Assembly: GCA_002633005.1 (NCBI GenBank)
Contig: NMRA01000338.1
Span: 10,369-47,679, forward strand
Length of the DNA: 37,311 bases
Reading direction: 5' to 3'
Source of the DNA: Phoronis australis
Taxonomy: Eukaryota > Animalia > Phoronida
In this document: positions 11,659 through 35,863 of the stretch, in pieces
Layout of the letters: each line of letters begins with the position of its first letter
Numbering within the stretch: position 1 is the stretch's first letter
Position numbers and translations under genes: made by a program
Notes under the pieces: model-generated
What the model was told of the DNA's origin: nothing
Database searches by the model: none
What the model saw: only the letters and a program-made list of their open reading frames with translations

Positions 11659-12270
11659 TTGCACTGGCGATGTATCGATACAGAGGATATGAAGGGTCTC
11701 TTGTAGAAAGTCACACTACTAGTTTGACATCAGAGACGTCAACTGAGGAACAGGGCAAAACAGTACCTAATTCGAATTTAGTGAAATGTGATAAACTTGA
11801 AAAAGAAATGGTGTTCAGGTTGCAAAATTTGTTTTACTAAATTCGCTAATGACCGAAGTGAACTTTGTCTAGTTAGAGTGTATTGTGACACGTTATAAAT
11901 CCAGTTTCGTTATGCGCGAGACATCGCCATATCGCACGGCCTAGTGCGCGTGCACTATACTAAGATTTAGAAAATAGAGATATATGTGCATTAGTAGTAC
12001 TCGACGAACTCCTTACTCATTCAAAAACCTTCTCCGCTTGTGACAATTAACACAAATAATACCAAAATCAACCAATTCTAGCCTATCAGTGTTTTCTAAA
12101 AAAATTCGTCATAAGCACTGTATATGCAATGAATATGGAGAACTCTGCGTGTCTTTTTGACTCCAAAGTATTCGAGTGCGTTAAAGGTTATGAATACATT
12201 CTTCGTAAATCCTTCGTCACAGTTATTAAACACACACAGAGAACCCTTCCTCGTGGTCACCAGTGTCTTG

Positions 12271-12448
12271 TTAAAGTTCAGTGTGTCCCCCCTGTCCTCC
12301 AAAGTATTCCTCAGGGGTGTGGAAAGCGATACCAACGTTCTCGGCAAACACTTTGTCCGAGTCGCTATGATCTCCAGGTCTACCAGCCGCATCCCCAACA
12401 TACACCGCAGTGGACTTGTCAATGGTCTTGAACTGATTCAGTGTGCAG
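12271..12448 (-). CDS. Exon 13: PNK 3'-phosphatase motif IV (YVGDAAGRPGDHSDSD..FAENVGI.FHTPEEYF) then GGQGGHTEL-stop
   Basis: Acceptor ccttacag|C, motif match, TAA at 12271-12273. Confidence 0.93.
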
Positions 12449-15400
12449 CTGTAAGGACATTGTAAGTTAGTTATGTAGGACATTCATCATTTATTGACAA
12501 GATTTTACACAAAACCAAATATCTAAAAAGCTAACACTTTTGACACTTTTGTACGAAAACAACAACATTTTTTTTCTTTCAATGCAAATGTTCACAACGA
12601 AATCTCAAAATCTGTTACACTTCTCTAAATGATTTTTTCGTTTTCCTTTTATTTTGATTTCTATATTTCCCTAAAACTTCCATTTTGACAATCCATAATG
12701 CCAAAGAGGATATAAAACTTAATCCCTAACCGAATTTTAGAGAACAGAGCGTGCAGTCCAGTAACTGGTTTGACTCCAATCCCCCGTCTTTACTCATTTT
12801 TTGTATCTCCCATTACCTTAATTTTTAATACTGGCATTTAGGTGAGCGATTAAAAAGTCTTTCACTCGGTCCTCGAATGGAAATTAAATAAAACATAATA
12901 TTAGGCAGAGACGGTGTGCGAAAATATATGAAAATTAGAGATTTGTTATGTTAAAAATTAGTTATTAACTGAAATTCTAAGAAATTTCTAAAGTACATTT
13001 AATTATCTTTATTACATATTTAAGATGCTCTGCAAGCAAAATTAATTTGAAGGAAACACCGTCAAGTAGAAAACCAAGGGGCCAAAAACAACGTGCACAA
13101 GATAAATATACTCATACCTGTAATATGTCCACATTCCAGTGTCAGGCTTACGAAGATCGTTGTACTCTGTGGCACCTAGGACAAACATGGGTACACCCAG
13201 TTCGGTCGTAATAGCTTCAATCTTTGACATCCACTCGTCTTTATTCTGAGAGCCGCTCCAGATGCCTGCCTGCAACAAATACGTAAAGGAATGGATATGA
13301 TGTACAGTTACCAAGGGGGGTCTACCTATCTTTGAACAATCACTGAGACGGAGTCAGTGCAACCATCGTTCAGTGTGCATTCTACCCTATCCCACTAATC
13401 TGCAGAATGAAGTGTATAATAATCAAAAAAGGCCAAACTGCATCTGCTTCATTCTACACTGTGGATTGTCTGTTGGCTTAACCAAGACCGCGCCGGGAGT
13501 GAGCTTGCACAAAATTTAAAACGTTACGTAACTCAACAATTTACAAAGTTTAGCCACCTCGTTTGAATTCGGCCTATGTATATTGTTTGAATTACTGCTT
13601 AAAGGAATTGATCCGCTCACTTACGTTATTAGGTGGTTGATATTCAAACCCACCACATCTTTTTTGCATATCACATCGTTGCCCTAAAATACCCTGAAAG
13701 TGTAGATGTAGCTGGTTTACGACTGAATGTATTACCTGGTTGCTCATGATAACGTTGTTGATCCCCTTGTTCTTGTTGTCTTGTATTTTGAGTTTGACAT
13801 TGTCAGACGTGAACATCCAGTCATTTTCGTCGACAGGAAAATCTTCGCCACTTTTCGTTTTGCTAATGGTATTATCCAGGTCAAAAGATGCCACGTGCTC
13901 ACTTGAATAAATCTGGTTCTTCGTTTCGTAGTAGAGAAGGCCGTTGGACAGCTGTGTCCACCAGCCGGGGAGTGTGTTGAGCGGGGGATGTTCACGGGAC
14001 AAGCGACGACCTGAGCTCCAATACACACTCTCGAGGAGATATCCGGCCAGTTCCTCATACCAGTCAGTACCTGGATTGGAGATCATCGATCCAGTGCGGA
14101 AGAATCCTGAATATCCCGGGTGTCGGGCGACCACCTTTTTTGTCGAATAGTAGTCCACCAATGGAAGGTCTATGTTGGGCTCTTTGTAAATCAATTCCCT
14201 GTTGGAGTCATCCACGTGTACAAGAATGATGCACATCTCCGGCTGGCAGTTCAGAGTGAAGCAGTGCTCCGACCCAGGAACTCTGTAAGAATAAGTGTGA
14301 ATGCGTAAACTGATGTTAAGCCACAAGTAAAGTACAGCAACACACCAAGATTTTCACTATTTGGCCATATCTTTTTAATTAATGGAATAGAGTGGCTTAA
14401 TGGATTATTTTCTCGGCATATCACTCGTGTGGTGCATTGGAAAGTTTAATTAGCAATTATTCGTGGAGCGGGATATATGCCGCCAAAATGTTTTGCTCTC
14501 ATGGAAATGTGATGGTCAGTCTAGCGTAAAAGATTGTGTTTTGATTCTTGTCTTCTATAATAGGTATCACAAACTTGTTTTATTTCCAAGTAGATTATGG
14601 TATTTATTTATAGGTAAATGTATTGTAAAACAGCATAAGATTTGTCGCTCTGGTCCTGCATGCGTTTGACCAACCTATATACATATTAAAATTCATGTTG
14701 CTTTACATATAGTATACCATTTCACCTAAAATGTCTGAGCACATACCTGCCACCTTCTCCGTTCCACGAACCAGCTTGTGTCCATAGTGTATCGGGATCC
14801 ACACTAGGGAACGATTGGCACCACACGGCAAAAACGTAACGTGATATTTTATGCTTTGGGGTTGGCTCTCTTGGATCGGGAGTCGCTTCTGGTCTGTTAA
14901 ACTTCGGATAACCTTGAGCATTGCAACCGTCTCTTGGATCAGTTCCCAATGTAGCCATAGCTACTAAGTCTGCAATCTCACGCTCATTGGTGTCTTTGCC
15001 GCAAACCAAAGACCATTTGACAATCAAAGCTGAAGTACCCTTTCCTGTTGAAATCCATTCAGAGGACACTGATACGTCCATACAATTTGAAGCTGACTTC
15101 ACTGGACCCATGTCAACTGCAGCATGTCCGGGGGGTAGTTCGGACTTGAAGGTATTCTTATCTCTTGGAATTGCTAATTCTTTACGAACTGCCACGTTTA
15201 CGTATTTCAGATATTGGAACTTGAGCATGTCTGCCAGTTTTTCGCCCATAGCGAATAGAGTAGCGGCTGGATTTCCGTCGGTTTGTGTTGCGAAGGCTGA
15301 GGCATCACACACTCTGAGATTAGAAACTCCTCTCACTCGTAGAAACTCATCAGCACAGTCTGGCATTTTGCATGTACCGACGGGGTGAAGTGCAGACACC

Positions 15401-18400
15401 AGCATTCCACGCATCCATGCGTCCAACTTATCGTCCGTATCTATATCCAGCCCTGGTGCAACTTCGTCTAAAACCAGTTCTTTCAACTCTTTGCTAACGT
15501 TTTTTCCAAAGAACATGTTGCGCAACAGGCGAATTTGATCTCGGACAAGCTTGGAGACCTTCTTGAACTCTTCTGTCGGTACCCCATCTTCAGTGTATCC
15601 CCAGCCATACTCTATCTCCGGCTTGTCGAATATGTGTGAAGTGACTGCTTTGACATGGCCGCGATACTCAGGCCACTGATCGATGATACGAATAGTACCT
15701 AAAGGAATCAATAACACAAAGCAAAATTATGTTTTTCTCACAGGTATATACATTATTTTAATGTTATCATAGAACTCTGGGAATGGAATGTCTTTTTTCA
15801 TCTCACTAAGGCAATGGGAAAGTGACATCTTAACTATAATAACACTTTTCGCAACTTTTCCGTTTTTCATCCGAATTGCGTTCAAGCGCATTGCATCAGA
15901 GTCATATTAAAAAGTCCTCCATGAACTCTCGATGGTGTATGATTATACTAGAAGCAAAAGATAAGAAATTAATTTCATAAATAAATTTTATTTTGCAGGC
16001 ACTAATTGACTGATTATTATCTAATTTTCAACTAATTAGCTTGAACTGTCAAAGAATTTGGGATGTATTACAAAAATGATACAGAGGTAGACATTACATA
16101 AATGACTAATGACGCCGGCAGATTCAAAAGATTGCTACCGGTTACAGACAAAGTTTTTGAACAATGGATGCCTCACAGTTGCTGTGAAGAATCTAGTCAG
16201 ACATTCATCCGTTTGATACAACGACATTTTTCAATAAAAATCAGGGTTCAATGACACTTACATGTACAAAAACCGTGATAAACTAAATACCCTAATTATC
16301 TATCTGAAATATGCGGATAAGGGTTTTCCGATAGATAAAAATGGCCAAACATTTTTTGTAGATTTGAAGCATGTGGATAGCTCAATGCATTGCTTGCAGT
16401 TAAGGGGAAATCTAGGAATAAACACATTTTTTCACGAATTAAAATTAGTGCTGTGTGTTACAACAAACAAGACACGCTGGAAAATATTTTTATAATTGTT
16501 ATGTTACTAAGGAAAACGGACTCTGGAAAATCAAATATTCATAACAAAGACATACTGTTATTTGGAGCACCAGTTGCACAGCTGTCAGTATTCGAGAATG
16601 AGAAAACGGGACAACTTGATTGAAAAGCGAAAAATCTGGATTAAAAGCGGGACACCAGGGCTCTGCCACAGCGTCAGAAAGAAAATAATGTTCGTCGCAA
16701 CACACAAAAAACGTTTTTTTGTTAAACGACAGACTGCAGGTGCTGTAATACCCAAAAGTGCGTTCCTTATTTTTGGTCAAATTGGAAGTTGCGGGTGCTA
16801 CGAAAAAAACAAATTGTGCTTTCTTTTTAGTGGAACTCGAGAATGAGGCTATGCCGCGAGGGTAATCACAATAGTACATATCAATAATGTGTCAATTACG
16901 CAGTGTGTCGAAAAATGAGACATTTTGATGGTGTAGCGGGCACTTGGGAAAACTTCAAAAAACGGGACAGTCTGCCAAGAGCGGGACAGTTGGTAAATGC
17001 AATGTATGCTGTCGGTAACACAAAGTATTAGATTGGATTCCTTTACGAGGGGAAATTTTCACGAGTAAAGGTTGATAACATTACCACATCACTGATCAGA
17101 AAATGAATAAACATTCAATCTAGGCAACTGATAAACATTGCACCAATGAATTATTGTGGAAACAAGACAAGCAGTAATAATTTATAAATGTATATATTTA
17201 CACGAGCTCACCTACTCAAATAAGTGCATGAGTACTGAAACACGCCTTTTCGTTTATAATTGCAGGACAAACTCTCAGAAACCTAGTATCTCCTCTTAAC
17301 GTAAAATTCGGTTATTGTCAAAAGTTGACTGTGGGTTTAGTTTAAATTTAGTTTAAAAAGTACTTGTAGCTATGCTTTGTGATTGCGCGTGGATAGAAAG
17401 ATAATGCTTAAATCCAGTAATTACTTTATTACATGATAATCACTAATTAAAACTAGTAAAACTTGTTGTTAATTAAGTACACTAACTATGAAGAAAAGTT
17501 ACTACGCTAGCACCTTCTATAGGGATCAAACGTGCTATCTGCTGTCCAAGCTGTAGGAATCGACACTGTTGGTCTGTCCGTGAACTAACGCACACTGCAC
17601 CTCAGCAGTGTACTTGATGGTCACAGTCCTTCGTGACGCAACACAAATCTGTAGTATCGCTTAGCCAGATACAACGCTGGACATAGTCCTTCGTGACGCA
17701 ACGACACGCGTAGGTAATATCTGACTAACCATAGTTCTTCTTGCTGGCCATAGACTCTTGTAACGCAACGCGTGTAGGCAGTTGTTTTTTACTACCTACG
17801 GTTCCTCTTGCTAGTCACAATCCCTAGTGACGCAATACTTGTGGGCAGTGAGTTTGTGGTTAATTTCCTGTTCGGTAAGGTGACACTGAACAGTTAGGCT
17901 GTGCCCGCGGCCATTTTCCACTACCGAATATTAGAATCTAGGATAGGCTAAGTTTGGGGGCATTTTTATTTAGGTACTGTATGTAGGCCAAGTGAATGCG
18001 GATTGTTTGTATCTATGAACATGTTGAGAATGAAAAAAGACCACTTGCTTGGCTGTAGCGGCACTCTTCATCAAGATGACGGCCCCCTGTTGCAATTGTG
18101 TGTTGCTGGTTAACGACTGGGGAATTGGCTGCGATTTCACGAAGTTCTCAAACAAGCCAGTGACATGTGTTCTGATATGAAAACTACCATGAGAACTGTT
18201 ATACTTGTACGTCCCCTAACCGTTACATTTGCAAAGATTATCTTTAGAATCTTCCACGAGAGGGCTCTTGTGTATTATTTCTTCAGTACACTGAAGCACG
18301 TCCTATAACTCAACAGTCAAATTCCATCTTATTAATTTACCGATTTCTGCCCAGTGTTACGATATTGCTAAAGCACTGTATTCATAATGACAAAAAAACA

Positions 18401-21400
18401 GGACAGCCTTTCATTTTCCTATCAAAATCAATTTTCCAGAATTGTATATATTTACATGTATAGCTTTGTTTACGTAGAGTTCTATTCAATGATTTGGCAG
18501 AGACTCGTGCGACAAATTCTGGCATATTTGTCAGCAAGAATAGATCACCAAGAGATATTATAATGATATATAAATGACGGTTACATTTCGAAACTGCTCA
18601 TGTCTCGTCTTCACTCAATACACCTGTTAGTAAAATATCTCGGTCAAGAAATTGATGAAATTTGAATATACCTTCGAGTGTATCGCTGGAGTCCTCGTAT
18701 TGCTTGTTTTGTGCATCATCTTCGTATTCAGGAGGGTCAGCTGTGCATAGCGCACCTGTGAACAACGAACGAATGAATGAATAAATGAATGTCTTAATTA
18801 GTGAGAGAAAGCACGGATAATGAATGAATGTGGGAATGAATAATTAAATGAAATGATATCCATTCATTTTATGGAGGAACAAAGGTGTATACCAAATAGT
18901 GATGATCACACTTACATGTAGTGGTAACCACTCAGCTAGATGTATGAAGAATAAAAACGTCAAAAGACGACCAGATGGACAATCATTGGACACATGTCTC
19001 CTATCTTACATTTCCGCGGCTACTTCAGTGCGAGAGGTGATATAGGAACTTTGGGTAATTCATTATCCAGTCAACTGAACAAAGTGTTCAAGAATACAAT
19101 TTCATTTTCATTAAGAATTTTAATTTCAATGTTGGAGAAAAGTAAGCCTGAAATATTTTGTTGCCCACTAGGTGTCAGGGCAGTATGGTTAGATCAACCA
19201 ATTATACGACTACGAAATAATTATTGTGAGCGTGTCGGTTCCAAAGTGTGTGGTGTTTTTCAAACCAAAGAGGAGTTTTACCCAGTTATGACACTTCTGA
19301 GCCGATTAATTATTGTCTCATTGCATGGTTTATCCACACAGCAGCAGACTCATAAGGTATCTGTCCCCTGAATCGCTATTGATCAGTCACAAAAACTGTG
19401 TTGAATGAGCAGCTCACAGGTGTGTACTGCACGCTGGCTCTTTCTTTTGGGTTGCGGTTGTCCTACCGTGTGTTGCAGTCATACTCTCTGCTTGTATGAC
19501 CCTCTTCCCGCCGTCACGTGTATTTCACTGTCTATTACGCTATGTATATGATCATTCCACTTATTTCCTGATGATGATCACTGCAGTCTCAAAACATAGC
19601 TTGTGTTTTAATTTGTTTGTTTGTTATGTCTCTCGGTGTTTAACTACATAGCTGCACACCTGAGAAAGGATATTATTCCGACACCACCAGCGAACCAGTA
19701 TGAAGCTTTCGCACAGAAAGTCTAGTCGTGTTTTTAACGATGTTTGTGTAAACGAAGGGCTGTCACTGAACTATAGAGACTTGAATGAGAAGATTCCTAA
19801 ATAATCTGAAGGTGGTTTAAACTGCTACAGTATTAAGCAGCAAATGACAGCGACACGATCCCAGTCTTGACCTGTCGAATTTGTTGGCCATAATTAAGGT
19901 AAGGGGTTGCCTAGGAAATACAAAAGGTATAACTACAGACTCAATGTTATAGATCGTCATAACATTACCAGTCTCGTCAAATAGCTTGGAGTTTCCCATC
20001 ACATAGAGCTGGATGTCGGACATCGAAGCGGGAACACGGGAGACGTTAGAGCGATAATGTATGATCCAGGAAAATGGACCGTTGATGCTGGCCAAATCCC
20101 CTGTATTGTATTCGGTACCGTCAATGTCAACTTTTGGTGGAGTGCCGCAGCACAAGTCATCGGACGCTGAACTAAGTTTTAGAACGTACGGTACCGAGAT
20201 ATGGTCCCATAAATGCTGGCCCACATGCTTGTTCTCAGCAACAAGGTCTACGCCGATATCTTTGAGAAGCTTTTTAGGCCCGACTCCGCTCACCTGCAGT
20301 AAAACTAATGTATATCAAGCAAGTTTCAATCGAAAGATTTTCATAACACGGAATGCACGAAGGAAACGTATAATGTCCTTCGGTTGGTTGCTTCGTCAGT
20401 TGTTCGTTGGCTGGCATGATTGGCTGACTGGTAAATGGGTTAGATGGTTGGTTGGTTTACTACTTACTTAACAGCTGTTCTATCAACAATATAATAATTA
20501 GTTTATTATGCTTATTCGTTAGATTGCAAACTGTCCATACCAACCTCGGTAACAACAGGCACGCCTAATCGGACCTACATTTTCAGGAAGTGCTTCGGGA
20601 GGATTTTCTTTAAATCAATTTTACGTCGTCATCTGCATATATAAAAACTCTTGGTTGCTTCTGTCTTTCACGGTTAGAAATATCCAGGATATTTAAAAGA
20701 TTTGGCCACACTTGATTGACTTCGCCGGTTTTGCAAGGTCAACTAGTGTCTGAATGGTTTGTTAGCCGGAAGTCGTCACCAAAACCCTTTGAGATGTCTT
20801 GGCTGGTTGACCCAACTATGTTGGCGAAGTCAATCAATTGTAACCATTATGAACACTGAAATAAAACTATAAGTGAGTACATGATAGCGGATGAAAAATA
20901 GTTTACACGTGACATGGCATACGTCATAAAACATGAAATGTATGAGCTTATACGTAAATATCAAATGTACCTGAAGTAAATGTGGTGTATCGAAAGAGCC
21001 CGCACCAACGATGACTTCTTTTCGGACGAATGCCTTTTTAGTCTGCCCATTTTCTTCGTCCCAGAAGGTCACTCCAATGGCTTTGCGCTCTTCGTTGAAC
21101 AGGATCTCTACACATGCAGTAACAATTTCATTTAGGGTTAATAATCGATAGAAAATTATAAGCCGGAAGTGATGTATACATCATATCAGAACATGGAGTT
21201 GGCAATGGGCTGCCTCATACATAACAGGTGTAGCCTTCGAGCAATAGAAATTTCCTCAACCCATGAGCTTTATAATGAAGAACAAAGGTCGTCCTTGCCA
21301 GACACCTCAATAGCCTTCAGGTGCAAATTTCGGGATGACAAGAGCCAAACAAGCCTGAACAAATTTTCCGTCATTGAACGACTTGCTGACTTAATCAAAA

Positions 21401-24400: not shown

Positions 24401-27400
24401 ACAGCCACAGACGAGAAAGAAATTCCCTACTCTTCCCAGTAGTAACACATGTGCCATTTTCATAAGTGAAGGAGGATGTTTCTATGTGTCTCAATCTCCA
24501 AGTATTTTCACAGTCAGCTAAATAAAGTTCTATGCTGTGCAAATCTGGTTTTGAAAAATGGTAATTTTAGGATTTTGTCTAGCCAATCAAAGCGATATAC
24601 CCATTAAATAAACGAAGAAACTTCTATGAGAACAAACATAAGTTTCAGTTAATTGTGAACGACATTTGCCTTGAGATTATCACTTTGCATTTGAATTGAC
24701 CTCAAAACATAAAATTAACTCCAGAAATGAACTTCCCGACCCCAAAAGCATTGCAAATATGACATAATTTGTTCTAGTGATAATAATAGCCGAAATATGC
24801 CAACTTCCATTCTGCAGGCAACCATATTGAATTTTGTGCCTAGCGACCACCAGGGGCTCAGAACACTTTGCTTTTTTTAATTTTCTCTTCTTATACATAA
24901 CATTGTACCAAATTGCAAACATCTGTCACAAAGTACTCAAATTTTACAAATCTGCATATATGTCCTCCCCGCTGTTCAACAACATCGTTGGAAGTACGAT
25001 ACGAGCGGAGCGTCATGAAGGCACAGCGAGGACAAAACCGGCACTGTACCTGTTACAGGTGCAGATATGGCCACATACGGTTTCTTGGCGTTGTCTTTGT
25101 AGTAGCCAGTGAAACTACTCCCGCGTGCTGTTTTAGAGGCGCGATTGGCGCGAGCTTCCTCCGTCGGATTGTGATCTTCATCAGTGCGAAGTTTGTACTG
25201 CTGGAAGACACTGCAGCTTATTCTGTAAAATAAATTGTAGCAAATGCGTTTTATACATGACTACACTATTGTTAAGAAGTATTACCAATACCAAATACGG
25301 CATTATATGGACATTAATCGGTAACGGTGGGTCCAGTATAGGTCGACACTGCCCATAGATAACTCCATGTTGGAAACCAGAGCAGCTGCATCTGTACGTT
25401 TATTCGATTCCCGGCCATACGCACGCGATCAAAAATGACGTGTCAGTTCACTGGAACGTTTTTCATATTGGAGCCTCAAAAACTTTATAGCAATTACTGA
25501 GAGTCGGCTTCATTCATATTTCAAATAACAGATTTTATACCACCATGTTAGCGTCGAATGGCAAATACAATCGTGTAATAACCCATTTAGTTATCTCACT
25601 AGTAAGATATCATTTTGGCGGGAAACTGAGGCTGGTTTCTAACCCAGGCCTCAAGAGCTTCGGGTCCCTGACTTTACCACTACACCACTCAGCGGCTGAC
25701 GTCATCGAACGTGAAAATAGAATACCTAAATGAAGGCGCGCAACAATCGCATGTTCAGCAAAAGACAGTGTACCAACGTTTATACGCTATGAAAAATAAG
25801 ACGCAGAATTTTCATAAAAATGATAATTTAATTCAGTGAAATTTTCTCTCGTGTTCTCCAGCTTCTAAATCACCGATCTCCAATTTAAATGCGGGTATCG
25901 TGTCGTCGGGATCCTTTGACTTGAGCATCATACTCAGTTACTAGAGGTAACCTACTTTAGCAGACGATATTTTCCCGGTCGAAGCTTAGCGTGATAAAAT
26001 GTGAAGTAAGCTATAATAGTTGCTAAACCTTAATTTATAGATTTATTTTATTTCTATTTTGTTTAAGTTTTCAATTGGTTTTGAGTAAAAGCATTATTTG
26101 ACAAAAATAGCTCGGGCCTCTGACATAGAAAGTAGTTACGAGTCGAGGAAGGTAAATCGATTCATTGCAATATTTCTCGTTCAGTATGTGGTAATACATG
26201 TTCTCAGTTGTTATCCCCCGTATTCTAGAGCCCTCGTGGATTTTGGAGAATTCTCCAAAATCCACTCGGGCTCTAGAATACGGGGGATAACGACTTTGCC
26301 ATGTAATAATCTGTATGTATCATTAATTTGAGAATGTTTATTTTGTTATTTTTTATTCTGCATTTAAAAATAGCGTGCGACATCACAAGGTAATCGTACT
26401 AAACAATATAAAACCTTGCGAAGTGTAGACATTATGGGCTGATTATGAAAATAGGGACCACTCGTCCAGCACATTAAGTTTTCTACGCATTTGTGGACTT
26501 TTGAAAATATATAGTGAATTTCTTTTGCTGTCGTTACTAATTCTACATTTGGTTTTGATACAAACTGATCGTAAACCCGCCGTTAAATAGGCATCTTTTC
26601 ATGCAAGGCCCCTAACCTAAAGACCAAGCTCCTGTTTATTATCACTGAAATAAGGTCTTTGTTTTATATAGTTTATTAGGAAATGTTATTAGCCAAAGAG
26701 AAGAGCATGATAACGATATGATGATAGACAAGCATAACGCTTTTGTGTAAACAAATGCATAAATGCGTGGAAGAATCAGATAACTTAGTTGAGTCCATTA
26801 TTTCACGCGAACAGGAAACAGTTGTGACAATTTTGAATTTATTGGAAATGAAATTTGTTGAGCAATGTAATATATCGGGAATATTGTCTTTTTGAAATAT
26901 TGTAGGAAATATTGAATATATCGGTCAGCAGCTACAGAGGCTCAGTTTAAATATTTTTGAAGGAAATCATTGGAATAACGAAAGTAGCAATAGCTGACGA
27001 GACGAAAATAAATTTAAATTTTGCAAAATGAACTTAGGTAAACGACGTGACCAGCATCCGCGCTCGTGCTTTGTAACACCGGACGATATTCCATATATAT
27101 CACTGAAAGAGTGGATCGTAATTCCTATTAGTCCACATTGACGTAAGAATATGTTGCGGTCTTACAAGAAGACAGACTGTCACTGTGAAAATGAATGTCT
27201 TTAAGCACTAAAATCTAGTACTCTTATTGCGTATATCTGCCATTGGTATATCAGAGCACGTTTGCGCAAAGGAAAACAAAAATTGACATCACCTTCTTGC
27301 GCACCTATTTGTCCTACTTTTAGTAAGAGTGTTACTTGCCCGTCAATCTCAAAACGTTTCGTCCCAGATTGACCCCCNCACCCCCGCCCATGTCAGGCGA

Positions 27401-30400
27401 CTATTATTGAGGGTGTTTCACACCAACAACCTCCAGTAAATTCGTTGTTTGCCCTTCCCTGTTCCGGAGCTCTTGTTTGCCGTTGCTAACGGTATGCAAA
27501 AATCTTGTGTTCAGTTTTTGTACCTGTCCTCCACTGGACCGTTGTAATCAGGCTTGTAACCATTCCAAGGCTTCGTCTTGTCTTCACAAATGTATTTCAT
27601 CTCTCTCGGGAACAGGTGGAAGGCTTCCTGCAAATGAAGTACGTAAGATTATTCTTGAGCTCGCTCGACTCCCATACCCTTCTATCCTTTTAACCCACGT
27701 TCCCCTATTGACTGTAAAATAGGGAAAGAGAAGCCAACTGAGTTCAAGGCCGTACCCTTGGGTTTCATATGTTGAACTTGGTTCATTGTTCAAAGTGAGT
27801 CAAGGCCGACAAAGAGTCCCGTTTAATTTTTGTTTAGGGCGGTGCAATTCCGGCGGTATGGTACCTCTAACTGTGTATTGAGTTGCATCGGCCCGCCTTT
27901 CCCGTGCCATTTCTTGCAATCCCCTGACGAAATTCCGGTGACTTCTTCTGAATCATAGTGGCAGTAATGGTCCTCAACTTTCTTGTAGTAATACGTCATG
28001 TCTTCATGTTGCCATCCTGCATTAACAAATTTAAATTTTTCTACCGTTAACCAACCAGTATCAATCACATACAAAAGGGCGTGTATTTTCATAGTTTCAG
28101 TTACGTGGGGACTTATCAAGAATTCTCTGTATTTAGACAAATACCTCCAGATTTCAACGAAATAACTGATAATGGAAATCCTGTAGGATTTGATGTTTAA
28201 CTTTTTTTGAATCTGCAATTGATTCAGTCTTGTGATCATGTCATTTCAGTGAAATTAGGGAACACGAAAGGTACATTGTTAACAAAACAATGGTGCCAAT
28301 AACATAACCAAATTTTACTTAATGTAAATGTGCAGAATGAATTCGTTTTTTGTTTCATGCGATTTTTTATATCGTAAAATTCAGAGTTTTTGTGGTCCTT
28401 CATGCTAAAATAGAACACTTCAAAAACAATTCCTAACGGATATATTGCACATGGCATAGCATCTGAAATTTTCATATGAATCCGAACAACTCTTCCTGAG
28501 ATAAGATGTTGTAAAGTTAGCAATATTTGGACAATTTTTGGGAGTCCTACATAACCTTAACTGTATTGATTGTGCATGCATGTTTTATTTAACATTTGAT
28601 TGAGAACTACCTTCAGGCCACAGGTCGAGAACAGCCGGGCTGGCGCGTCTTGCTATGGCCCCATACACGCGAGAAGTGCCCCCGCGTCCACGGAAGCGCG
28701 GAATATAGATCAAGCGGCCATCTCTATTTTTGTTGGTCAGGTATTTCCCATCTTTCGTTTCCATGGTTTTCAGCGTCGGTTGGGTGAGCCAGAATGGATC
28801 GTGAGGGCTGGTAAACTTGTAGCTGTTGGTGTACCAGCTCTCCATTCGGGATTCCATTGGGCCTGTAATGTGGACAATAACAACAGGATTCCTACTGAGC
28901 TGAGTGAGGACGGTAAGGGAGAGCCAAGGAGAGTGAGATACCCTTAACAGTAGAAGTGCGCTTTCACCACTTAAAACACATGACAGGATGGTAATGAGAA
29001 AAATATAGTTCTGCAGTTTGTTACTCATGACTGATAACACACGCCATTATGTGACAGTTGGTATATATGTACCAACACCGTAAACATGAACAATTTACAT
29101 GTTAATCATCACACGGTCTTTTTTCTCTAACGAGCCCTCATCGGACGACAGATGACACTATTTGTGGAAAAAATTGACCATTGCAGAACATTCTGACGAT
29201 GTAGACAAAGAGAACAGGTGAGGTCAAAATTTGAAGTAGGTAAACATATCCCAATATATTAAATAAAGAAATAATTGCAGGCGGTCTGATACACGTTGTA
29301 CCAGACGTGCGCAGGCCTCGCATGTGGGCCCATTGCACTGATAACCTGGAAATATTTTGATGCTTTATTAATATATGGTTAAAACCGAGCTGAGGAGCTA
29401 GAAACCTGGCTCAAGGGTTTAGCAGTGTGACCTGGTGGGACTTGAACCCACAACCTCGAGTAACGAAAGCGGGCACTTATCAACCAGGCCACACTGCCTC
29501 CTCTCCAATATATTAAAGGCGAAGGCAACCTTTTTTCATGTCACTTTTAGCAAAAATAAGGTTCGTTGATTATCCCAGACACATTTTTCACTTAATTACA
29601 GCTTTTCGTAATTTGATTAATTTCTCGTCCTCTACACCGGACGTGACGTTTTGGGAGGCAAGAGTTTCGCGCCAATTTCTTTTCATTATAATTCTGACTG
29701 TGAGAGCTGTCCAGTCAGTCATTGTTCTACCTCGGTTGTGATAAGTTTGGTCGTCGTTTGCTTTTGTTTACAAGTCAGTCAACATGCCACGCTATTGCTG
29801 CGTGCCGGGATGTACTCATTATCGTCTCACACGCGCTTTGGGTACTTTTCGTCGCTTTCCGCCTTACTTGGCTAGCGCGTTCATGTGAAGAACGCAGCGC
29901 TACCCGTCCACGCAACGTACAAAGCAGTGGAGGGTTACCGAGTGTGTGGCAAGCATTTTCTGCATTCAGATTATGACAGAGATATGTACGCTGAATTGAT
30001 GAAAGTCCCTGCGAAACAACGCCTAAAGAAAGGTACCACACCGTCGCTGCTGATTCCCGGCAGTGCCTCGTCGCCAACCCCGAGAAGTGCGTTTTTGAAG
30101 CGAGAAGCCTCGCGAGCTGTGGCCACAATATACAGTGAGTGGAGGCACTTCATCTACTGTCACCCGTGCCTCCGAACGTACCCCATTGCGTGCAATTCCG
30201 GGAACTAGCAGTGATTCGCCCTGTGTTGTTGTCTCTAGCCCCGGGAGAGCCTGTAAGCAGCCCTGCAGCGATGTTAAGTAGTGGGAGTGAATACAGGCTC
30301 AGTTCGACACCCAGTGAAGAGGGCAGTTCGTCATCCAATGAACAGATCGGTGAGCCTAAGTTTGATAAGTTTATTGTGGACTTGTATTGAAGCTATTTGG

Positions 30401-33400
30401 AAGGTGCCAGTTGTGTGACGAGGGAGTCACACGGCGGGATGTAAGCAGTTTGGGTGCTCAGATCACCCTCCAGTGGGAATGTGTCGCGGGACACTCGGGC
30501 AAGTGGGACACTTCTTCCTCTGTATGTGAGACGATAATGAGTACACCCCAGTACGCAGCAACAGCGTGTCATGTTGACTGACTCGTAAGCAAAAGCAAAC
30601 GACTACCGAACTTATTGCAACCGAGGTAAAACAATGACTGACTCGACTGTTCTCACAGTCAGACTGTATGAAAAGAAATTGGCGCGAAATTTTTGCCTCC
30701 CAAAACGTCACTTCCGGAGTAGACGACAAGTAATTAATTAAATTACGAAAAGCTGTAAATAAGTGAAAAATATGTCTGTGATGATCAACGAACCTGATTT
30801 TTGTTAAAAATGACATGAAAAAAGGTTACCTTCGCCTTTAAGATACGAAGAAAGCAGAGGAAATATGGATTAGTGGTCGTATTATAAAACATATAGAATG
30901 ATCCCTCAGGGAATTTTGTCCATGATCCATATAACTTGACAGCTTTAGGAATGGTACGTATTTGTAGAAATGTACGTTATATCGATAGGTTGGGTGGTTC
31001 AAACCACGGTTCAAATTGTCTCACTCTCTTCCAGGTCGACCTATAGCGAATGCCTGACTTGTTGGACTTTTTTCACTTCGTTAGCATAGATATTTAGAGT
31101 ATGCAGACTGACAACCGAAAGGTTCCAGGTTCAAAACTAGGGGCCCTTTCCAACGAAACTGACTTAGTTAAGACAAATCTTAAATTTTAGTAAATTTTAA
31201 AATAAAAGTTAAATTTGTCTCAAAACCGATTCAATAAAGAGTTTTTAAGTTTGACTTAAGTGTTTGACATAAATTTGTCTTAATTTTGACTAAATTACTA
31301 AATGTGGAAGTTTGGAATTTAAGATAAATCTTAAACTTAAGTTAAAAATGAACTTAAGTCAATTTTATGGAACAGGCCCCTGCCTTCTACCACGAAAAAT
31401 ATAATCCAAGTGCCCACCATGAGTATACCAGATACCGGCGCTCGCTATTCCTAGAACGTTGTAACACCTGAGGATGACCGGAGAAATAACCAACGAAAGG
31501 TCGTGCCAATTTAAATAGGTTATCGCTTGGTGGAAATAGATCGCGAGATTTTAGACATGGTGTTACAACATCACAACCTCAAAGCGGTTTCACGAGGTGC
31601 AGTCGTTCTTACAAAACAATGCATTATATGATATAGAAATGGTTACAGGCAAAATTTCTAGATCGTGTCACGTGGTACTTTGAAGACAAAAGTTGATGAT
31701 ACTATCTTTTATTTCTTTAATTTGATGAAGTTGATTACGTAGTCTTGTATCTATGACCACTAAAAGATTAGAAATCACTGTCGGATTTAAGATGCCGTAT
31801 ACGATGAGGGTACCAAAGGCATGTCGACGGTCCTTTTTGATCCCGTTCTTGGCGGAGCGAATACCTGAATTCCAGTAAGTCCACCCATGTGTTACAGACT
31901 GGGGTTTTCTCCCCTCACTAAAAACTGATAGAACTCCAACTTTGAATTTGGAATTAACTCAACCAGCCACGATGCAGATGGTAATTTTCTATTGGTGAGA
32001 TTCAATATTGAGAAGAAAATGCGAATATCTCTGATTAATATATATGGGCAAAATCGTGATACACCAAGTTTTTACAAAAATTGGTGATATTTTATCAGAG
32101 ACAGATACGGATTATACCATATTGGATGGGATTGGAACTTAGTTCAGAACTTTGACATTGATTGTTTACAGGCCAGAGTCGAAATGATTAATCTATCTTC
32201 CATATTCAGTTTAGTAGATACCTGACGTCTTCATCATCCTGTTGAGTCCTGACACGGTGAAGAAAGATGGACTAGATTTCTTCCTTGTATCAGAAGAAAT
32301 GTGTGGTTTGTTGGAGTCATCCGGCATTGATTCGGGCTATAGAACTGAACATCTAAGTGTAGGTTTCAGCTTTCGAGTAACAAATTTGACTAGAGGACGA
32401 GGCTTGTGGCGATTCAATAGCACTCTTTTATCTGATACAAATTATGTTAACTGAGGTGTTGCTTACCTCTCTCAAAAACGCAGACTTTCCATGATGGTAT
32501 TTCAGCTAGTCTACCAGCGAGGGCCAGGCTGGATGTGCCCGCACCGACGATGACGAAATCGCACCACATCCCGTCCTCCACACTCCTGTTGTAAACGACA
32601 GAACATTACTGTCATTTTGGCATGATAAACGTTCTTGGCAAACGTGCACGAGAAACGTTCACTAGAAAACCGAATAAATATGTTCCAGTCAAAAGGGGCA
32701 GGAATGGATCCTATTTTGGAAACAAATTCAAGAGGTTGCGTACATGTCACAACAAATTATTGAAGCTGTTTTGATTTCGTTATAAGTTTAGAGTATTTTA
32801 ATACCAGCAAACGGAATTTCAACAGAAATTTTACATGCAGTCCCGCTGGTCGTTGGCTCTACATGTTGATATTAGTTTCACGTCGAGGTGACTAGCAAAA
32901 CTACCCGAGCTGTATGAAAGTCCGGGGTCTGAGGAAGCCAGCCAGGTGTATGAAGACTACCGTCAAAATACAGCTAGGCACAGTTGAACTTCCATAGACC
33001 CCGAAATTGCACACAGCCAGGTTAGTTCTGCTCGTCACCCCACCGTGAAAATCCTTTCAACATGTAAAGCTAAAGACTGGATAGAGTGCATGCAAAATCT
33101 TGAAATCAACCGACACTCACCTTGCCCGTTACTGCCGTTTACCTGAAAACAATCTAATAAATGTCATTTTCTTGGGTAATTCTCCACCTTTTCTGACAAA
33201 GAAAAGTTCAGTCGTCATTTCGAAAACAGTACGCACGCGCCATTTCCTAGATGTTTGTGACATCTCTCGGAATAAGATGATGATAGCTTAGCAGCAGCAA
33301 AATTTCTTCTGAAAATCGGATTTGCTGGTATCAAAATTCTAAAAACTTATAATGAAGTGAAGCCAGTGCAGATGATTTTTTGTGACGCGTACGCAACCTC

Positions 33401-35863
33401 GTGAAAAAAATAACAGTTGATTGAAAAATCGGCGAAAAAAGAAAGTGGCCAATAGGTGACACACTATTTAATGGCACCGGAAGCCGATGCATACGATCGC
33501 TCCACAAGTTCAGCTGCAGAATAACGGTAGAACGCCAATTTTTCCAACACCGGTAAAGAATTTAGTGTGCTCAAGGAAGGGTGTAGTTTTTAATGACATT
33601 AATTTTGCATCAGATTTTATCTGGTCAGTTTTTTACCCACATCGGCGCAAAGTTGTATATTTATTTTACAGGATTACAGCTTTGTACCAAGACTGGGTCC
33701 AACGGAGCTCAGCACACAGTGGTACCTAGCTGTATTTTGTCGACAGTTTTCAAACAGCTAGCTGGCTGTCTACAAGATCTGAATTGTGCACTTCGACGTT
33801 TCGCGTTACTGTTCCGTCCCGCCGAATCGTGAATCCGGCCCAAATCAGAATATTTTGATTTGGCCTTTCTCGTATCATAATTCTGATACGGGTTGTCCGT
33901 ATCGTAATATCTTTATGAATGAATTTTTTAAAAAACTTAAATTGATTACAAATCCTTGTAACCCGGTATGTTTTCAAATAACTGAGACTTTGTTTCATAG
34001 TGTTAATACACTACAGATACTCACAACGTTGTGTTGCTATTAAATTTGCGACTACGGGTTGCAGGATTTCAAAGTGAATTATTTCAAAACTTTAGCACTA
34101 ATTTAAATGGCCATGCCACTTCACAGTAAATTAACATTTATGACTTACAGCACAAGCCGAAATGTGTCATGTCTAAATATTTTGGAATCGCTATTTATTA
34201 GTCATGAAAAACCTGTGTTGAATGAGCAGCTCACAGGTGTGTATCGCACGCTGGCTCTGTTTCGATAGGGTTGCGGGCTTCCTACCGTGTGTTGCATTCA
34301 CACTCTCTGCTTGTATGCCCCCCTTCCCGCAGTCACGTGTATTTCACTGTTTATGTTGGTACGTATAGGTTCATTCCACTTACTGTCTGATGGTGAGACG
34401 TGCAGTCTTGTGTTTTAATATTTTTGTTTCTTACGGTGGCTGTAAAAGGACGGAACGGCAACATTTTTTCTCCTTGTTAACTCTATCGATAGACTTACTA
34501 TCTCTATCGATAGACTTATCAAATCTATCGAAAGACTTACTATCTCAATTGATAGACTTAGTAACTCTATCGATAGACTTGCTAACTCTATTGATAAACA
34601 TACTATCTCTATCTATAGACTTACTAACTCTATCGATGTACTTACTAACTCTGTCGATATACTTACTAACTCTATCGATAGACTCACTATCTCCGTAGAT
34701 AGACTTACTGAGAGGCACACAAGACTGACAAGGTCATTGCAGGCTATTATGTATCGGACGTTAGTAATTATGAATGCCGTCCAAAAATGATTCGATTCAA
34801 AGTGGCCCAGATGCAAGAATTCTTACGTGGAGTGTACCTTTAATCCTGTGATAACGACTTCAATGAGTTGTATACTATGTTGATGGGAGAACAAAGATTA
34901 GAAACGCCCAGTGATGGTACAGAGGCAGCAGACTTATTGTGTATATCCAGTTCAGAGACACCGTTGTAATTGCACTGTAGACTGTATTCAGTTCAAATGC
35001 ATTTAGGCGCATGGGCCTGTATTCGAAGACATATTAAACTTTCAAAAAGTGAGCCTAACAAAATGTCAAATCCGAATGACAAGCCTTTTTCGTTTTTTTT
35101 TTTTTGGCCCTTCTGTCATGACGAGGCCCTGTCACCAGAGCCTTTTAATTTAATTTGATTTTATCTGTCAATTGTCAGATTTCATTGTGTCTTATCCCGT
35201 ATTCCTTTGAGGCCTTTTAATAAATGATTGCTCATGGCAAATTCAGACAGTTAGTTCTGATGATACACTTTGTTTATACGCACAATTTTCGTACTAGATG
35301 GGAATGTTTGCAGTAAAACGTAAATAGTATTTTCGGAATATTTATTTAGAAAAATCAAAAATTTTAAATCCAGTAACTTCATATCACTCAATAACAACAA
35401 GACTCATAAATTATCAATACTGTCGTACTGGCAACTGCACCTGATTACACCTGTTAAAACGGTTAAAACATAGCACTTCGAGTAATGGTCAGCACACGTT
35501 CAAAAATGGAAGCCATTGTCGATAGATCTAACGTTCTGAAGCAACGAATCGTTGACTCTTAACAACCATGTCGCACATATGTGTATCTTGCTTATACTTA
35601 CCGCCACACTATGTATGAACTTTGAACTGTATATACATGTGTAACACAAGAAATAAAACCAAAAAAGATCGACTTGAATCCATCTCACACCTGTCTTGTT
35701 TACAAATACCGCTTCACTTGGTATGTAGTTTGAACTAAACATTAATTGTATATGCAGTGGCTGTAAAAGGACAGGAATAATAAATTTTAAGAAAAATTTA
35801 ATCTCACCTGACAGTGCCGGTTATGGCCGAGGTCACTATGAGCCACACAAGACAAGACAACAT
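12271..35863 (-). CDS. 13-exon gene: signal peptide + GMC oxidoreductase + unknown domain + PNKP-type HAD 3'-phosphatase + HTEL (1076 aa predicted)
   Basis: Exons (minus): 35863-35808, 32585-32467, 28862-28611, 28016-27865, 27627-27524, 25222-25050, 21107-20971, 20293-19969, 18755-18672, 15698-14747, 14282-13736, 13269-13118, 12448-12271. All 12 introns are GT..AG, with matching phases 2,1,1,0,2,1,0,1,1,2,0,2. Total is 3231 nt, open to TAA. GMC and HAD motifs occur in the expected order. Confidence 0.85.
13118..13269 (-). CDS. Exon 12: PNK 3'-phosphatase (AGI...RKPDTGMW)
   Basis: Acceptor gttgcag|GCA restores NQxGI across the junction; RKPxxGMW is HAD motif III; donor AG|gtatga. Confidence 0.93.
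13736..14282 (-). CDS. Exon 11: second half of the unknown domain plus HAD motif I (FDLDNT) and motif II (SNQ)
   Basis: Acceptor tcttacag|A completes AG|A (Arg) in frame with exon 10; donor CAG|gtaat. FDLDNTISKTKSGEDFPVDENDW resembles the PNKP phosphatase N-terminus. Confidence 0.9.
14747..15698 (-). CDS. Exon 10: GMC C-terminal domain (PEYRG, LHPVGTCKM, LRVCDAS, GNP) plus first half of the unknown domain
   Basis: Acceptor cctttag|GT, donor AG|gtatgt. Catalytic His codon at 15385-15387 and Asn codon at 15271-15273. Confidence 0.93.
17621..17836. repeat. Degenerate ~60-67 bp tandem repeat, 4 units, core cayagtccttcgtgacgcaac
   Basis: Cores at about 17621, 17681, 17748 and 17815. Confidence 0.6.
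18672..18755 (-). CDS. Exon 9: acidic segment (GALCTADPPEYEDDAQNKQYEDSSDTLEG)
   Basis: Acceptor ttcacag|GT, donor G|gtatat. 84 nt, open, phase 1-1 (symmetric, so phase alone does not require it). Confidence 0.7.
19370..19770 (+). mobile_element. Penelope-like pseudo-LTR fragment (ORF C-terminus, UTR with decayed hammerhead core, ORF N-terminus)
   Basis: ES..ISH..VLNEQ-type GIY-YIG tail, then cctgatgatgatcactgcagtctcaaaac, then LSHRKSSRVFNDVCVNEGL. About 230 bp is shared with 34186-34410. Confidence 0.65.
19969..20293 (-). CDS. Exon 8: GMC (VSGVGP...VGQHLWDH...LFDETG)
   Basis: Acceptor actgcag|GTG, donor G|gtaatg. SGxGP and VGxxLxDH motifs. Confidence 0.93.
20971..21107 (-). CDS. Exon 7: GMC (EILFNEERKAIGVTF...RKEVIVGAGSFDTPHLLQ)
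   Basis: Acceptor gtgtag|AG, donor CAG|gtacat. EVIxxAGxxxTPxLL GMC signature. Confidence 0.93.
21850..23001 (+). mobile_element. 5'-truncated decayed LINE (CR1/L2-like reverse transcriptase)
   Basis: VVVDG..SGVTQGSVFGP, QKDLDSL..W, SKC, YLGL....LLWNTH...SKANK across frameshifts; ends in a gaagaagaag tail. Confidence 0.85.
25050..25222 (-). CDS. Exon 6: GMC (ISCSVFQQYK...ARGSSFTGYYKDNAKKPYVAISAPVT)
   Basis: Acceptor ttttacag|A, donor G|gtacag. RxSS...Y and A.VT elements that precede the ILF strand in GMC enzymes. Confidence 0.85.
25541..25730 (-). repeat. Second copy of the 3103-3280 repeat
   Basis: Reverse-complement similarity along about 180 bp. Confidence 0.7.
26206..26295. repeat. Near-perfect spacerless palindrome (82-bp core)
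   Basis: 26210-26291 has 41-bp arms with 2 mismatches, centred on gaattc. Confidence 0.95.
27524..27627 (-). CDS. Exon 5: GMC (EAFHLFPREMKYICEDKTKPWNGYKPDYNGPVEDR)
   Basis: Acceptor catttgcag|GAA, donor AG|gtacaa. Supplies the DxNG motif and the phase 0->2 bridge required between exons 4 and 6. Confidence 0.85.
27865..28016 (-). CDS. Exon 4: GMC (GWQHEDMTYYYKKVED...WHGKGGPMQLNTQLE)
   Basis: Acceptor aatgcag|GA, donor GAG|gtacca. GW...Y.K.E and HG.GGP GMC motifs. Confidence 0.9.
28611..28862 (-). CDS. Exon 3: GMC (GPMESR...IPRFRGRGGTSRVYGAIARR...LWPEG)
   Basis: Acceptor cattacag|GC, donor G|gtagtt. Variant of the PRGxxLGGSSxxNG GMC signature. Confidence 0.9.
29370..29500 (-). mobile_element. 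tRNA-derived SINE head
   Basis: Minus strand ggcagtgTGGCCTGGTTGataagtg..gtgGGTTCAAGTCCCacc gives Pol III A and B boxes, without a proper acceptor stem. Confidence 0.7.
29517..30837 (+). mobile_element. Kolobok-type DNA transposon deletion derivative
   Basis: TTAA duplication (29513-29516, 30838-30841), AGG..CCT termini and ~310-bp inverted arms. THAP remnant MPRYCCVPGC..VCGKHF..LKKGTTPS and zinc motif LFGRCQLC..WECVAGH..W. No catalytic DDE region. Confidence 0.8.
31140..31380. mobile_element. AT-rich MITE with GGGGCC..GGCCCC ends (Harbinger-like)
   Basis: Terminal ggggccctttcca..aactgactta mirrors taagtcaatt..tggaacaggcccc. Confidence 0.5.
31935..32454 (+). mobile_element. Decayed L1/Tx1-type AP-endonuclease fragment
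   Basis: DADGNFLLV, LINIYGQN, GDWNLV, LDFFLVS, RTEH and RGRGLWRFNSTLLSD, with stops and frameshifts. Confidence 0.85.
32467..32585 (-). CDS. Exon 2: GMC FAD-binding Rossmann motif (SVEDGMWCDFVIVGAGTSSLALAGRLAEIPSWKVCVFERG)
   Basis: Acceptor tttacaacag|G, donor G|gtaagc. Matches the GMC N-terminal pattern DxxIVGAGxxGxxxAxRLxE...VxxxExG. This frame is absent from the ORF track. Confidence 0.92.
32731..33400. mobile_element. Non-autonomous element with ~100-bp imperfect inverted arms
   Basis: gaggttgcgtacatgtcacaa..ataccagcaaacggaattt from 32731 mirrors atcggatttgctggtat..ttgtgacgcgtacgcaacctc ending at 33400. Confidence 0.6.
34145..34410 (+). mobile_element. Penelope-like element 3' end (second copy)
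   Basis: Reads STSRNVSCLNILESLFISHEKPVLNEQLTGVYRTLALFR-stop, like a Penelope GIY-YIG C-terminus. Direct repeat of 19370-19590. Confidence 0.65.
34474..34709. repeat. 21-bp minisatellite, about 11 units, consensus ttactaactctatcgatagac
   Basis: Head-to-tail units; the consensus contains the 12-bp palindrome TCTATCGATAGA. Confidence 0.95.
35808..35863 (-). CDS. Exon 1: putative signal peptide MLSCLVWLIVTSAITGTV(R)
   Basis: ATG with A at -3 (gagaagATG), hydrophobic stretch, donor AG|gtgaga in phase 2 matching the exon 2 acceptor. The join reads TGTVRS-VEDG, a plausible signal-peptidase site. Confidence 0.7.

Follow-up and report, generated by a model that had tools for sequence, protein, structure and literature searches.

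How is a gene of the phoronid Phoronis australis to be read that appears to join a GMC flavin oxidoreductase to a PNKP-type phosphatase: as one gene or as two that have been merged, and, if as one, what could its product do? The gene lies on the minus strand of a stretch of 37,311 nucleotides (contig NMRA01000338.1, positions 10,369 to 47,679 of the forward strand; hereafter the window, to which all positions below refer), the whole of which is intron-rich eukaryotic DNA. An earlier note, made from the sequence alone, had spliced 13 exons into one 1076-amino-acid (aa) open reading frame (ORF) ending in HTEL and had proposed a bifunctional enzyme of the endoplasmic reticulum (ER). We find one expressed transcript, encoding one polypeptide that fuses a GMC domain, a predicted START-type domain and a PNK3P phosphatase domain, and this fusion is a real, expressed and widely conserved family.

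One transcript and one polypeptide

The 13 exons, running from 35863 to 12271 (Table 1), join into a single frame of 1076 codons and a stop (3231 nt), and all 12 introns have GT-AG borders, as in the earlier model. The three Pfam domains expected by that model score above cut-off on the window: exon 7 matches GMC_oxred_N, exon 10 matches GMC_oxred_C, and the PNK3P match spans exons 11, 12 and 13.

Three runs of a single study (X2, X3 and X4) supplied stranded RNA reads, which were mapped to positions 11000-21400; spliced reads show five of the 12 junctions. The exon 10/11 junction (14747/14282), on which the fusion hinges, is in frame and crossed by eight reads (six from six different starts in X3, two in X4, none in X2), with at most 73 nt on the short side. 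The other four are 13736/13269 (exons 11/12; 20 reads, plus eight from a divergent allele), 13118/12448 (exons 12/13; 24 reads), 18672/15698 (exons 9/10; 11 reads) and 20971/20293 (exons 7/8; three reads). The exon 8/9 junction, inside the same mapped stretch, is not among the junctions listed, and none of the gene's junctions was found in the X1 contigs. Most mapped reads are less than 95% identical to the window, so the RNA runs represent divergent alleles or a close relative; in exons 11-12, among the 40 best-supported rows listed, eight read differences fall in seven codons, five of which are changed silently. Alignments to the proteins of Dendronephthya, Anneissia and Mytilus run unbroken across 11 of the 12 junctions, the loosely aligned one being junction 1/2.

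Two adjacent genes merged by a faulty model or by rare read-through could explain why only eight reads, from two of the three runs, cross this junction, and why intron 10 contains two AATAAA and two ATTAAA hexamers; but the junction falls inside one predicted domain, 21 homologues carry the fusion in a single chain, and one homologue is a single ORF call across the junction point on a 2.78-Mb contig. We consider this explanation refuted to a high degree.

A conserved family labelled by its parts

In a homologue search with residues 380-900 of the homologous protein P0003 as query (7995 candidates scored), 21 of 33 homologues were found to combine GMC_oxred_N, GMC_oxred_C and PNK3P in one chain, a wide conservation that the earlier note, which suggested such a search, had missed. 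The fusion is carried by the soft coral Dendronephthya gigantea, mussels (five Mytilus species), the crinoids Anneissia japonica and Antedon mediterranea and the brittle star Amphiura filiformis, and also by Diplonema papillatum and the bdelloid rotifers Rotaria and Adineta (three species), with a partial protein in Paramoeba aestuarina. Over nearly its full length the window protein shares 59-75% identity with the animal fusions of cnidarians, molluscs and echinoderms. Since these homologues are single chains and their alignments run unbroken across the junctions, the fusion is not a splicing artefact.

The architecture varies among members. Those of protists and bdelloids have an additional, canonical Polyketide_cyc2 domain behind the HAD phosphatase, and in the bdelloid members (P0184, P0185, P0187 and P0024) the START module has been relocated to the C-terminus and the phosphatase is degenerate. 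Three proteins of 1571-1884 aa (P0183, P0186 and P0230) comprise one or two Endonuclease_NS domains, GMC, START-like modules, PNK3P and Polyketide_cyc2; judged by domain content, they would be larger secreted multi-enzymes. GMC-only members occur in the stony coral Acropora, in Rotaria and in other eukaryotes.

Database labels for the fusion family name parts only (PNKP, ecdysone oxidase-like, L-sorbose dehydrogenase or uncharacterized). Three Mytilus proteins, P0213, P0217 and P0222, bear the name PNKP and yet fall in the fusion family, P0213 through cluster membership only. As in the earlier note, no description of the architecture was found in the literature searched, which consisted mostly of titles and the beginnings of abstracts, with supplements outside its scope, so that proteomic tables could list the proteins. 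The domains are individually known; their combination, a luminal PNK3P domain and a GMC clade with a tyrosine in the flavin loop were not found described in that literature.

A phosphatase without most PNKP DNA contacts

The PNK3P score is far over the Pfam cut-off and the nearest solved structures are all PNKP. With PNKP, Tpp1 and ZDP (PNK3P, PF08645; mouse PNKP, 3ZVL) the domain has in common the capless HAD fold and all catalytic residues. Every PNKP catalytic and phosphate-binding site listed in the accessible part of PMC13640680 is present, as D919, L920, D921, S965, N966, K1008 and D1037; D919, D921, S965, N966, K1008 and D1037 are the equivalents of PNKP D171, D173, T217, N218, K260 and D289, and D919 is the first HAD aspartate, placed by the earlier note at about this position. 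Among animal fusions the catalytic sites are retained in 19-20 of 20 proteins, depending on the site.

The surface that contacts DNA has fared differently. Only one of the seven DNA-contact residues given in the same source (K183, V184, F185, K226, K303, K304 and F306; human numbering, transferred from the mouse alignment) is kept in the window protein, namely F185 as F933, while K183 is replaced by Glu, V184 by Asp and K226 by Ser and the basic loop is deleted. A basic residue at PNKP 183/184 is found in 4 of 20 animal fusions versus 19 of 25 other PNK3P proteins, and at PNKP 224-227 in 3 of 20 versus 17 of 25; the HAD domain has a negative charge in 19 of 20 versus 3 of 25. Because most PNKP DNA contacts are lost, the substrate of the phosphatase is likely not DNA. 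A quick HAD tree neither supported nor rejected a single origin of the animal, protist and bdelloid phosphatases. A PA_Ig-like Pfam match over the HAD domain was below cut-off and was treated as noise.

Continued DNA repair, by an isoform that lacks the signal peptide or from a shorter transcript, would fit the strong PNK3P score, the database isoforms with shorter N-termini (e.g. Dendronephthya X2) and the automatic naming of the Mytilus entries, but we regard it as very improbable: six of the seven DNA contacts are lost from what is an acidic domain, the fusions have no FHA, kinase or zinc-finger Pfam match, the read depth is similar over exons 10 (about 4-9) and 11 (about 5-12) and low in intron 10, and the predicted signal peptide and HTEL speak against a nuclear location. 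Stand-alone Tpp1 is likewise not known to have FHA, kinase or zinc-finger partners.

A predicted START fold in the middle region

The earlier note had left the roughly 260 residues between oxidase and phosphatase without an assignment. An alignment-based model of P0003 residues 624-877 (predicted local distance difference test score 84.8) now points to a fold. Its second half aligns with XoxI (3CNW; Z 10.9, root-mean-square deviation 2.3, 117 residues aligned) and PYL9 (Z 10.6), Z reaching at least 8 in 19 of 48,161 chains, and Foldseek agrees on SRPBCC/START (best E 3.8e-6). By this model (P0003 is 75% identical here), window residues ~755-876 are predicted to adopt a helix-grip fold, in which a sheet of seven strands wraps a C-terminal helix. 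Exons 10 and 11 meet at residue 785, so that their junction cuts a single predicted domain. A PEBP fold, our initial guess for the region, was dropped once the fold searches gave SRPBCC proteins.

Ahead of this domain lies a first module (residues ~631-720), modelled with only three strands and two helices. Protists have a longer version of it that resembles the second module by profile (probability 79%, E 1.7e-5), so the animal first module is likely a shortened START duplicate; no profile match was obtained between the animal and protist first modules.

The window domain has its predicted helix-grip fold in common with the SRPBCC/START/Bet v1 proteins (XoxI, PYR/PYL receptors, polyketide cyclases). 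It differs from them in being embedded in an enzyme, in tandem with a shortened copy, in giving no Pfam match, as is true of the START region in the animal proteins generally, and in having Lys833 and Arg847 where a canonical copy is hydrophobic. All 29 rows have Arg847, and 26 of 28 have Lys833; in a weak profile alignment (probability 9%, E 0.0035) the canonical domain has hydrophobic strand residues at both positions. These two residues suggest a putative cavity that would bind an anion; START folds usually accommodate hydrophobic ligands. The ESM Atlas gave no usable match for the START region, and when a complex between the START modules and the HAD domain was predicted without alignment, the score was 0.00, which speaks neither for nor against contact.

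An oxidase clade with an altered flavin loop

The GMC domain is predicted to bind flavin adenine dinucleotide (FAD) and to oxidise alcohols. The flavin-loop tyrosine (Tyr125) is found in 31 of 31 family rows versus 0 of 23 other GMCs, where the residue is mostly the Asn of GG..xxN, which we take to be a GMC hallmark. Family members form a separate clade in a FastTree tree, from which seven rows were omitted as partial, redundant or poorly aligned. Also conserved in all 31 rows is the pair His572/Asn610, a His-Asn combination that Table 2 of PMC3541233 gives for choline oxidase, cellobiose dehydrogenase and pyranose oxidase. The family resembles the His-Asn GMCs (Arthrobacter choline oxidase 2JBV, cellobiose dehydrogenase, pyranose 2-oxidase) in GMC_oxred_N/_C, Rossmann motif and catalytic pair, but differs from them in its separate clade, its Tyr loop, the missing covalent His and Glu312, and the fused START and HAD domains. 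The ESM Atlas returned only generic GMC clusters for the oxidase. A GMC protein of a dinoflagellate mycosporine-like amino acid cluster, whose sequence lay outside our comparison, showed no link, and the part of its description available (PMC9298759) mentions no phosphatase.

Choline phosphate had been among the example substrates of the earlier note. An osmolyte route from phosphocholine through choline to glycine betaine in one chain would agree with choline oxidase and choline dehydrogenase being the closest solved structures by sequence (E ~2e-29) and with the common His-Asn pair; other GMCs, however, score within two orders of magnitude, the covalent-FAD His site of choline oxidase corresponds to Val124 (a register deduced from the motif together with Table 2 of PMC3541233), and the Glu312 site of choline oxidase, for whose role we follow a reference title in that article, is Ser in all family members where the motif was found (Ser364 in the window). 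Choline is an unlikely substrate because of this Ser, and such a route is very improbable.

Predicted retention in the endoplasmic reticulum

The window protein has a hydrophobic N-terminus and no other membrane segment (the top 19-residue hydropathy, 1.56, is N-terminal). By simple hydropathy, a hydrophobic N-terminal core is present in 16 of 17 chosen N-termini, the exception being P0003, the model start of which seems to lie inside intron 1. An xx[ED]L C-terminus ends 17 of 22 animal-type fusions, near-duplicates included; all 25 other PNK3P proteins lack it, and among 136 unrelated GMC matches, many of which are fragments, it occurs in 4. The motifs of the fusions are HTEL, HSEL, HIEL, HNEL, HAEL, HDDL, RDEL, RQEL and KVEL. 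HTEL is described as the ER retrieval motif of human CES2 in the accessible part of PMC11845761. The secretory entry and ER retrieval proposed earlier are upheld at the level of prediction, and we predict the window protein to be soluble in the ER lumen.

Since none of the 10 protist or bdelloid fusions has a KDEL-like end, ER retention is probably an animal feature, and the protist and bdelloid fusions would be secreted or anchored. In three of the four bdelloid fusions a hydrophobic segment lies some distance inside the N-terminus and resembles a signal anchor. Within one 90% cluster (P0174 and P0212), one form ends in RDEL, whereas in another the chain continues into a repeated segment, so that the motif is buried and ER retention would be turned off.

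Proposed reaction and alternatives

We propose, with a probability of roughly 0.4, that the protein acts in the ER lumen as an enzyme which first dephosphorylates a non-DNA phosphomonoester, small and probably amphipathic, and then oxidises the freed alcohol at its flavin. Asp919 would form an Mg-dependent phosphoaspartate and so remove the phosphate of the substrate; the putative START cavity, with Lys833 and Arg847, would hold the anionic substrate or product and give a specificity absent from a capless HAD domain; His572 and Asn610 would aid hydride transfer to FAD, leaving an aldehyde or acid and probably hydrogen peroxide (H2O2). Isoprenoid, alkyl-glycerol, sphingoid or sterol phosphates would be the first candidate substrates.

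Bifunctional proteins with two catalytic modules in one chain are known in soluble epoxide hydrolase, in which a HAD lipid phosphatase is fused, and in the hexose-6-phosphate dehydrogenase of the ER lumen. HAD action on lipid phosphates and luminal redox chemistry are the points in common; the partner domains are unrelated and no homology is implied. The same order of reactions, phosphatase and then oxidation of the alcohol, by a GMC enzyme in the scheme concerned, serves insect terpenoid routes (aphid ApGES and ApNEPO, a leaf-beetle oxidase, a HAD farnesyl phosphatase), where ApNEPO has a predicted ER-lumen signal peptide according to the available part of PMC9586269. The insect enzymes are separate proteins of other families without a START domain, and are likened to the window GMC clade by chemistry alone.

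Several observations weigh against the proposed sequence of reactions. The coupling of phosphatase and oxidase is not obligatory, to judge from their sequences, because oxidase-only relatives can be ER-tagged and bdelloid phosphatases lack some catalytic residues: 5 of 13 GMC-only relatives have an ER tag of their own (REEL in Acropora; KEEL, KVEL and KAEL), so that the oxidase can do without a phosphatase in the same chain, and the HAD domain is degenerate in all four bdelloid fusions, while a catalytic Asp is gone in 2 of 20 animal copies. The KDEL-like end is missing in 5 of 22 animal-type fusions and in all 10 protist and bdelloid fusions. As for the substrate, the short non-basic motif IV loop is shared by 7 of 25 other PNK3P proteins, the base-stacking Phe stays Phe or Tyr in 20 of 20 animal fusions, and a nuclease domain has been added in three proteins, which hints at nucleotides over lipids. 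The inward facing of Lys833 and Arg847 depends on the weak profile match cited above, and the His-Asn pair cannot separate an oxidase from a dehydrogenase. The interpretation of the earlier note thus stands in part: the single transcript and polypeptide, the predicted ER location and the intact active sites are borne out, but not the choline phosphate nor the mutual need of the halves, since GMC-only relatives have their own predicted signal peptide as well as the tag.

These points bear on two further explanations. The GMC domain may be a self-sufficient ER or secretory oxidase, for detoxification or H2O2 supply, with START and HAD delivered alongside as an accessory acting on other molecules or as a regulator. 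The GMC-only forms in stony corals, rotifers and other eukaryotes, the altered domain order and degenerate HAD of bdelloids, and the gain or loss of nuclease and second SRPBCC domains among members would all suit such uncoupled co-delivery; set against this, the animal fusion is one clade (support 100), its modules are kept at 49-79% identity save the shortened first one, and START and HAD co-occur in every full-length fusion compared. On this evidence we hold uncoupled co-delivery to be somewhat unlikely.

The second explanation is secretory or digestive nucleotide catabolism, in which the HAD domain would be a 3'-nucleotidase for nucleoside 3'-phosphates, 3'-phosphoadenosine 5'-phosphate or short oligonucleotides and the GMC domain would oxidise the nucleoside or its sugar. 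It draws on the one or two Endonuclease_NS domains in P0183, P0186 and P0230, on the retained base-stacking aromatic of PNKP and the solved HAD relatives, all PNKP, and on the named carriers being mostly suspension feeders or phagotrophs. The nuclease is nevertheless missing from all animal members, Endonuclease_NS enzymes yield 5'-phosphates, KDEL-like ends indicate the ER rather than the lysosome, and the usual ligands of START folds are hydrophobic; we regard nucleotide catabolism as unlikely.

Origin of the fusion

The window protein clusters with P0003, P0167 and Dendronephthya (support 100 in the GMC tree and 95 in a second tree). The fusion tree disagrees with animal phylogeny, and Amphiura joins Mytilus; echinoderm monophyly was rejected (approximately unbiased test, p-AU 0.013) in a test chosen post hoc, the Amphiura record being of low quality and on a long branch.

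A GMC-only paralogue, known from a genomic contig (L002, 478-3345) and an identical cDNA (L001, 82-1295), has a phase-2 intron after the signal-peptide exon at nearly the same position as window intron 1, and then runs intron-free for 1119 nt over six window intron sites. It has one intron in the first 400 codons versus seven in the window gene, and the comparison suggests heavy intron gain in the window lineage or loss in the relatives. P0167 is one ORF call spanning all 11 internal intron sites on its 2.78-Mb contig and would thus lack these introns. Pattern scans with two short motifs gave no confirmed relative among 13 stretches of prokaryote genomes or 21 viral contigs, which does not prove absence.

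The uneven distribution of the family and the scarcity of introns in its relatives are hints of horizontal transfer. The data agree with a gene that came from microbial eukaryotes and gained introns later, and also with old paralogy, many losses and intron loss. The full scenario, which as a whole we hold to be unlikely, would be that a DNA-repair phosphatase fold was relocated to the ER lumen, lost its DNA surface and was combined with a Tyr-loop GMC and a START domain for anions into a single-chain line that dephosphorylates, binds and oxidises a luminal metabolite, having arisen in microbial eukaryotes and been transferred horizontally, perhaps repeatedly, to suspension-feeding animals, with 11 introns gained in the window lineage.

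Gene features and surrounding repeats

Table 1. Features of the fusion gene in the window.
Feature	Position	Strand	Content
Exon 1	35808..35863	-	Start codon and predicted signal peptide (aa 1-19); phase-2 intron next; in-frame stop upstream; hydrophobic core resembles homologues
Exon 2	32467..32585	-	GMC FAD-binding Rossmann motif G33-x-G35-x-x-S38
Exon 3	28611..28862	-	Flavin loop with family-specific Tyr125 (28665-28663)
Exon 4	27865..28016	-	GMC
Exon 5	27524..27627	-	GMC
Exon 6	25050..25222	-	GMC
Exon 7	20971..21107	-	GMC_oxred_N (Pfam E 8e-7)
Exon 8	19969..20293	-	GMC; Ser364
Exon 9	18672..18755	-	GMC acidic loop
Exon 10	14747..15698	-	GMC C-terminal half: His572 (15387-15385), Asn610
Exon 10, 3' part	within 14747..15698	-	Likely shortened START-like module; first strand and helix of full START domain
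Intron 10	14283..14746	-	Critical junction, inside predicted START domain
Exon 11	13736..14282	-	START remainder: Lys833 (14140), Arg847 (14098)
Exon 11, 3' part	within 13736..14282	-	HAD motifs I-II: Asp919 (13882), Asp921, Ser965, Asn966
Exon 12	13118..13269	-	HAD motif III, Lys1008
Exon 13	12271..12448	-	HAD motif IV, Asp1037; HTEL (12285-12274); stop
Probable 3' untranslated region	11571..12270	-	From read depth; reaches AATAAA at 11576 inside a long terminal repeat copy

Downstream of the gene, positions 9754-11658 hold a short long terminal repeat (LTR) retrotransposon remnant, in which two 142-nt direct repeats, 96% alike, flank broken gag-like and aspartyl-protease frames. The only downstream AATAAA of the gene sits in the nearer LTR, which may therefore provide its polyadenylation signal. 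Opposite-strand RNA reads at 11000-11693 overlap the end of the 3' untranslated region and may stem from other copies of the LTR element.

Among the introns, intron 2 has at 29509-30845 what is probably a non-autonomous DNA transposon, with terminal inverted repeats of ~320 nt (89-90% complementary) that enclose a THAP match scoring below cut-off, and intron 1 contains a tandem array of palindromic units with a 21-nt period (34452-34745). Intron 6 has, on the plus strand (21850-22800), broken frames that by eye resemble a remnant of the reverse transcriptase of a long interspersed nuclear element, with no Pfam match. Two copies of a short interspersed repeat (19391-19589 and 34208-34408) attract heavy RNA reads from other loci on both strands.

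Significance

The gene defines a conserved eukaryotic enzyme family that databases have so far labelled by its parts, and the Mytilus entries automatically named PNKP are likely misannotated. With it, the secretory pathway would contain a phosphatase of the PNKP type, and the GMC enzymes would gain a clade whose flavin loop is altered. The family further offers a candidate case of gene transfer from protists to animals followed by intron gain, and it points to an unrecognised luminal phosphometabolite and source of H2O2 in corals, mussels and echinoderms.

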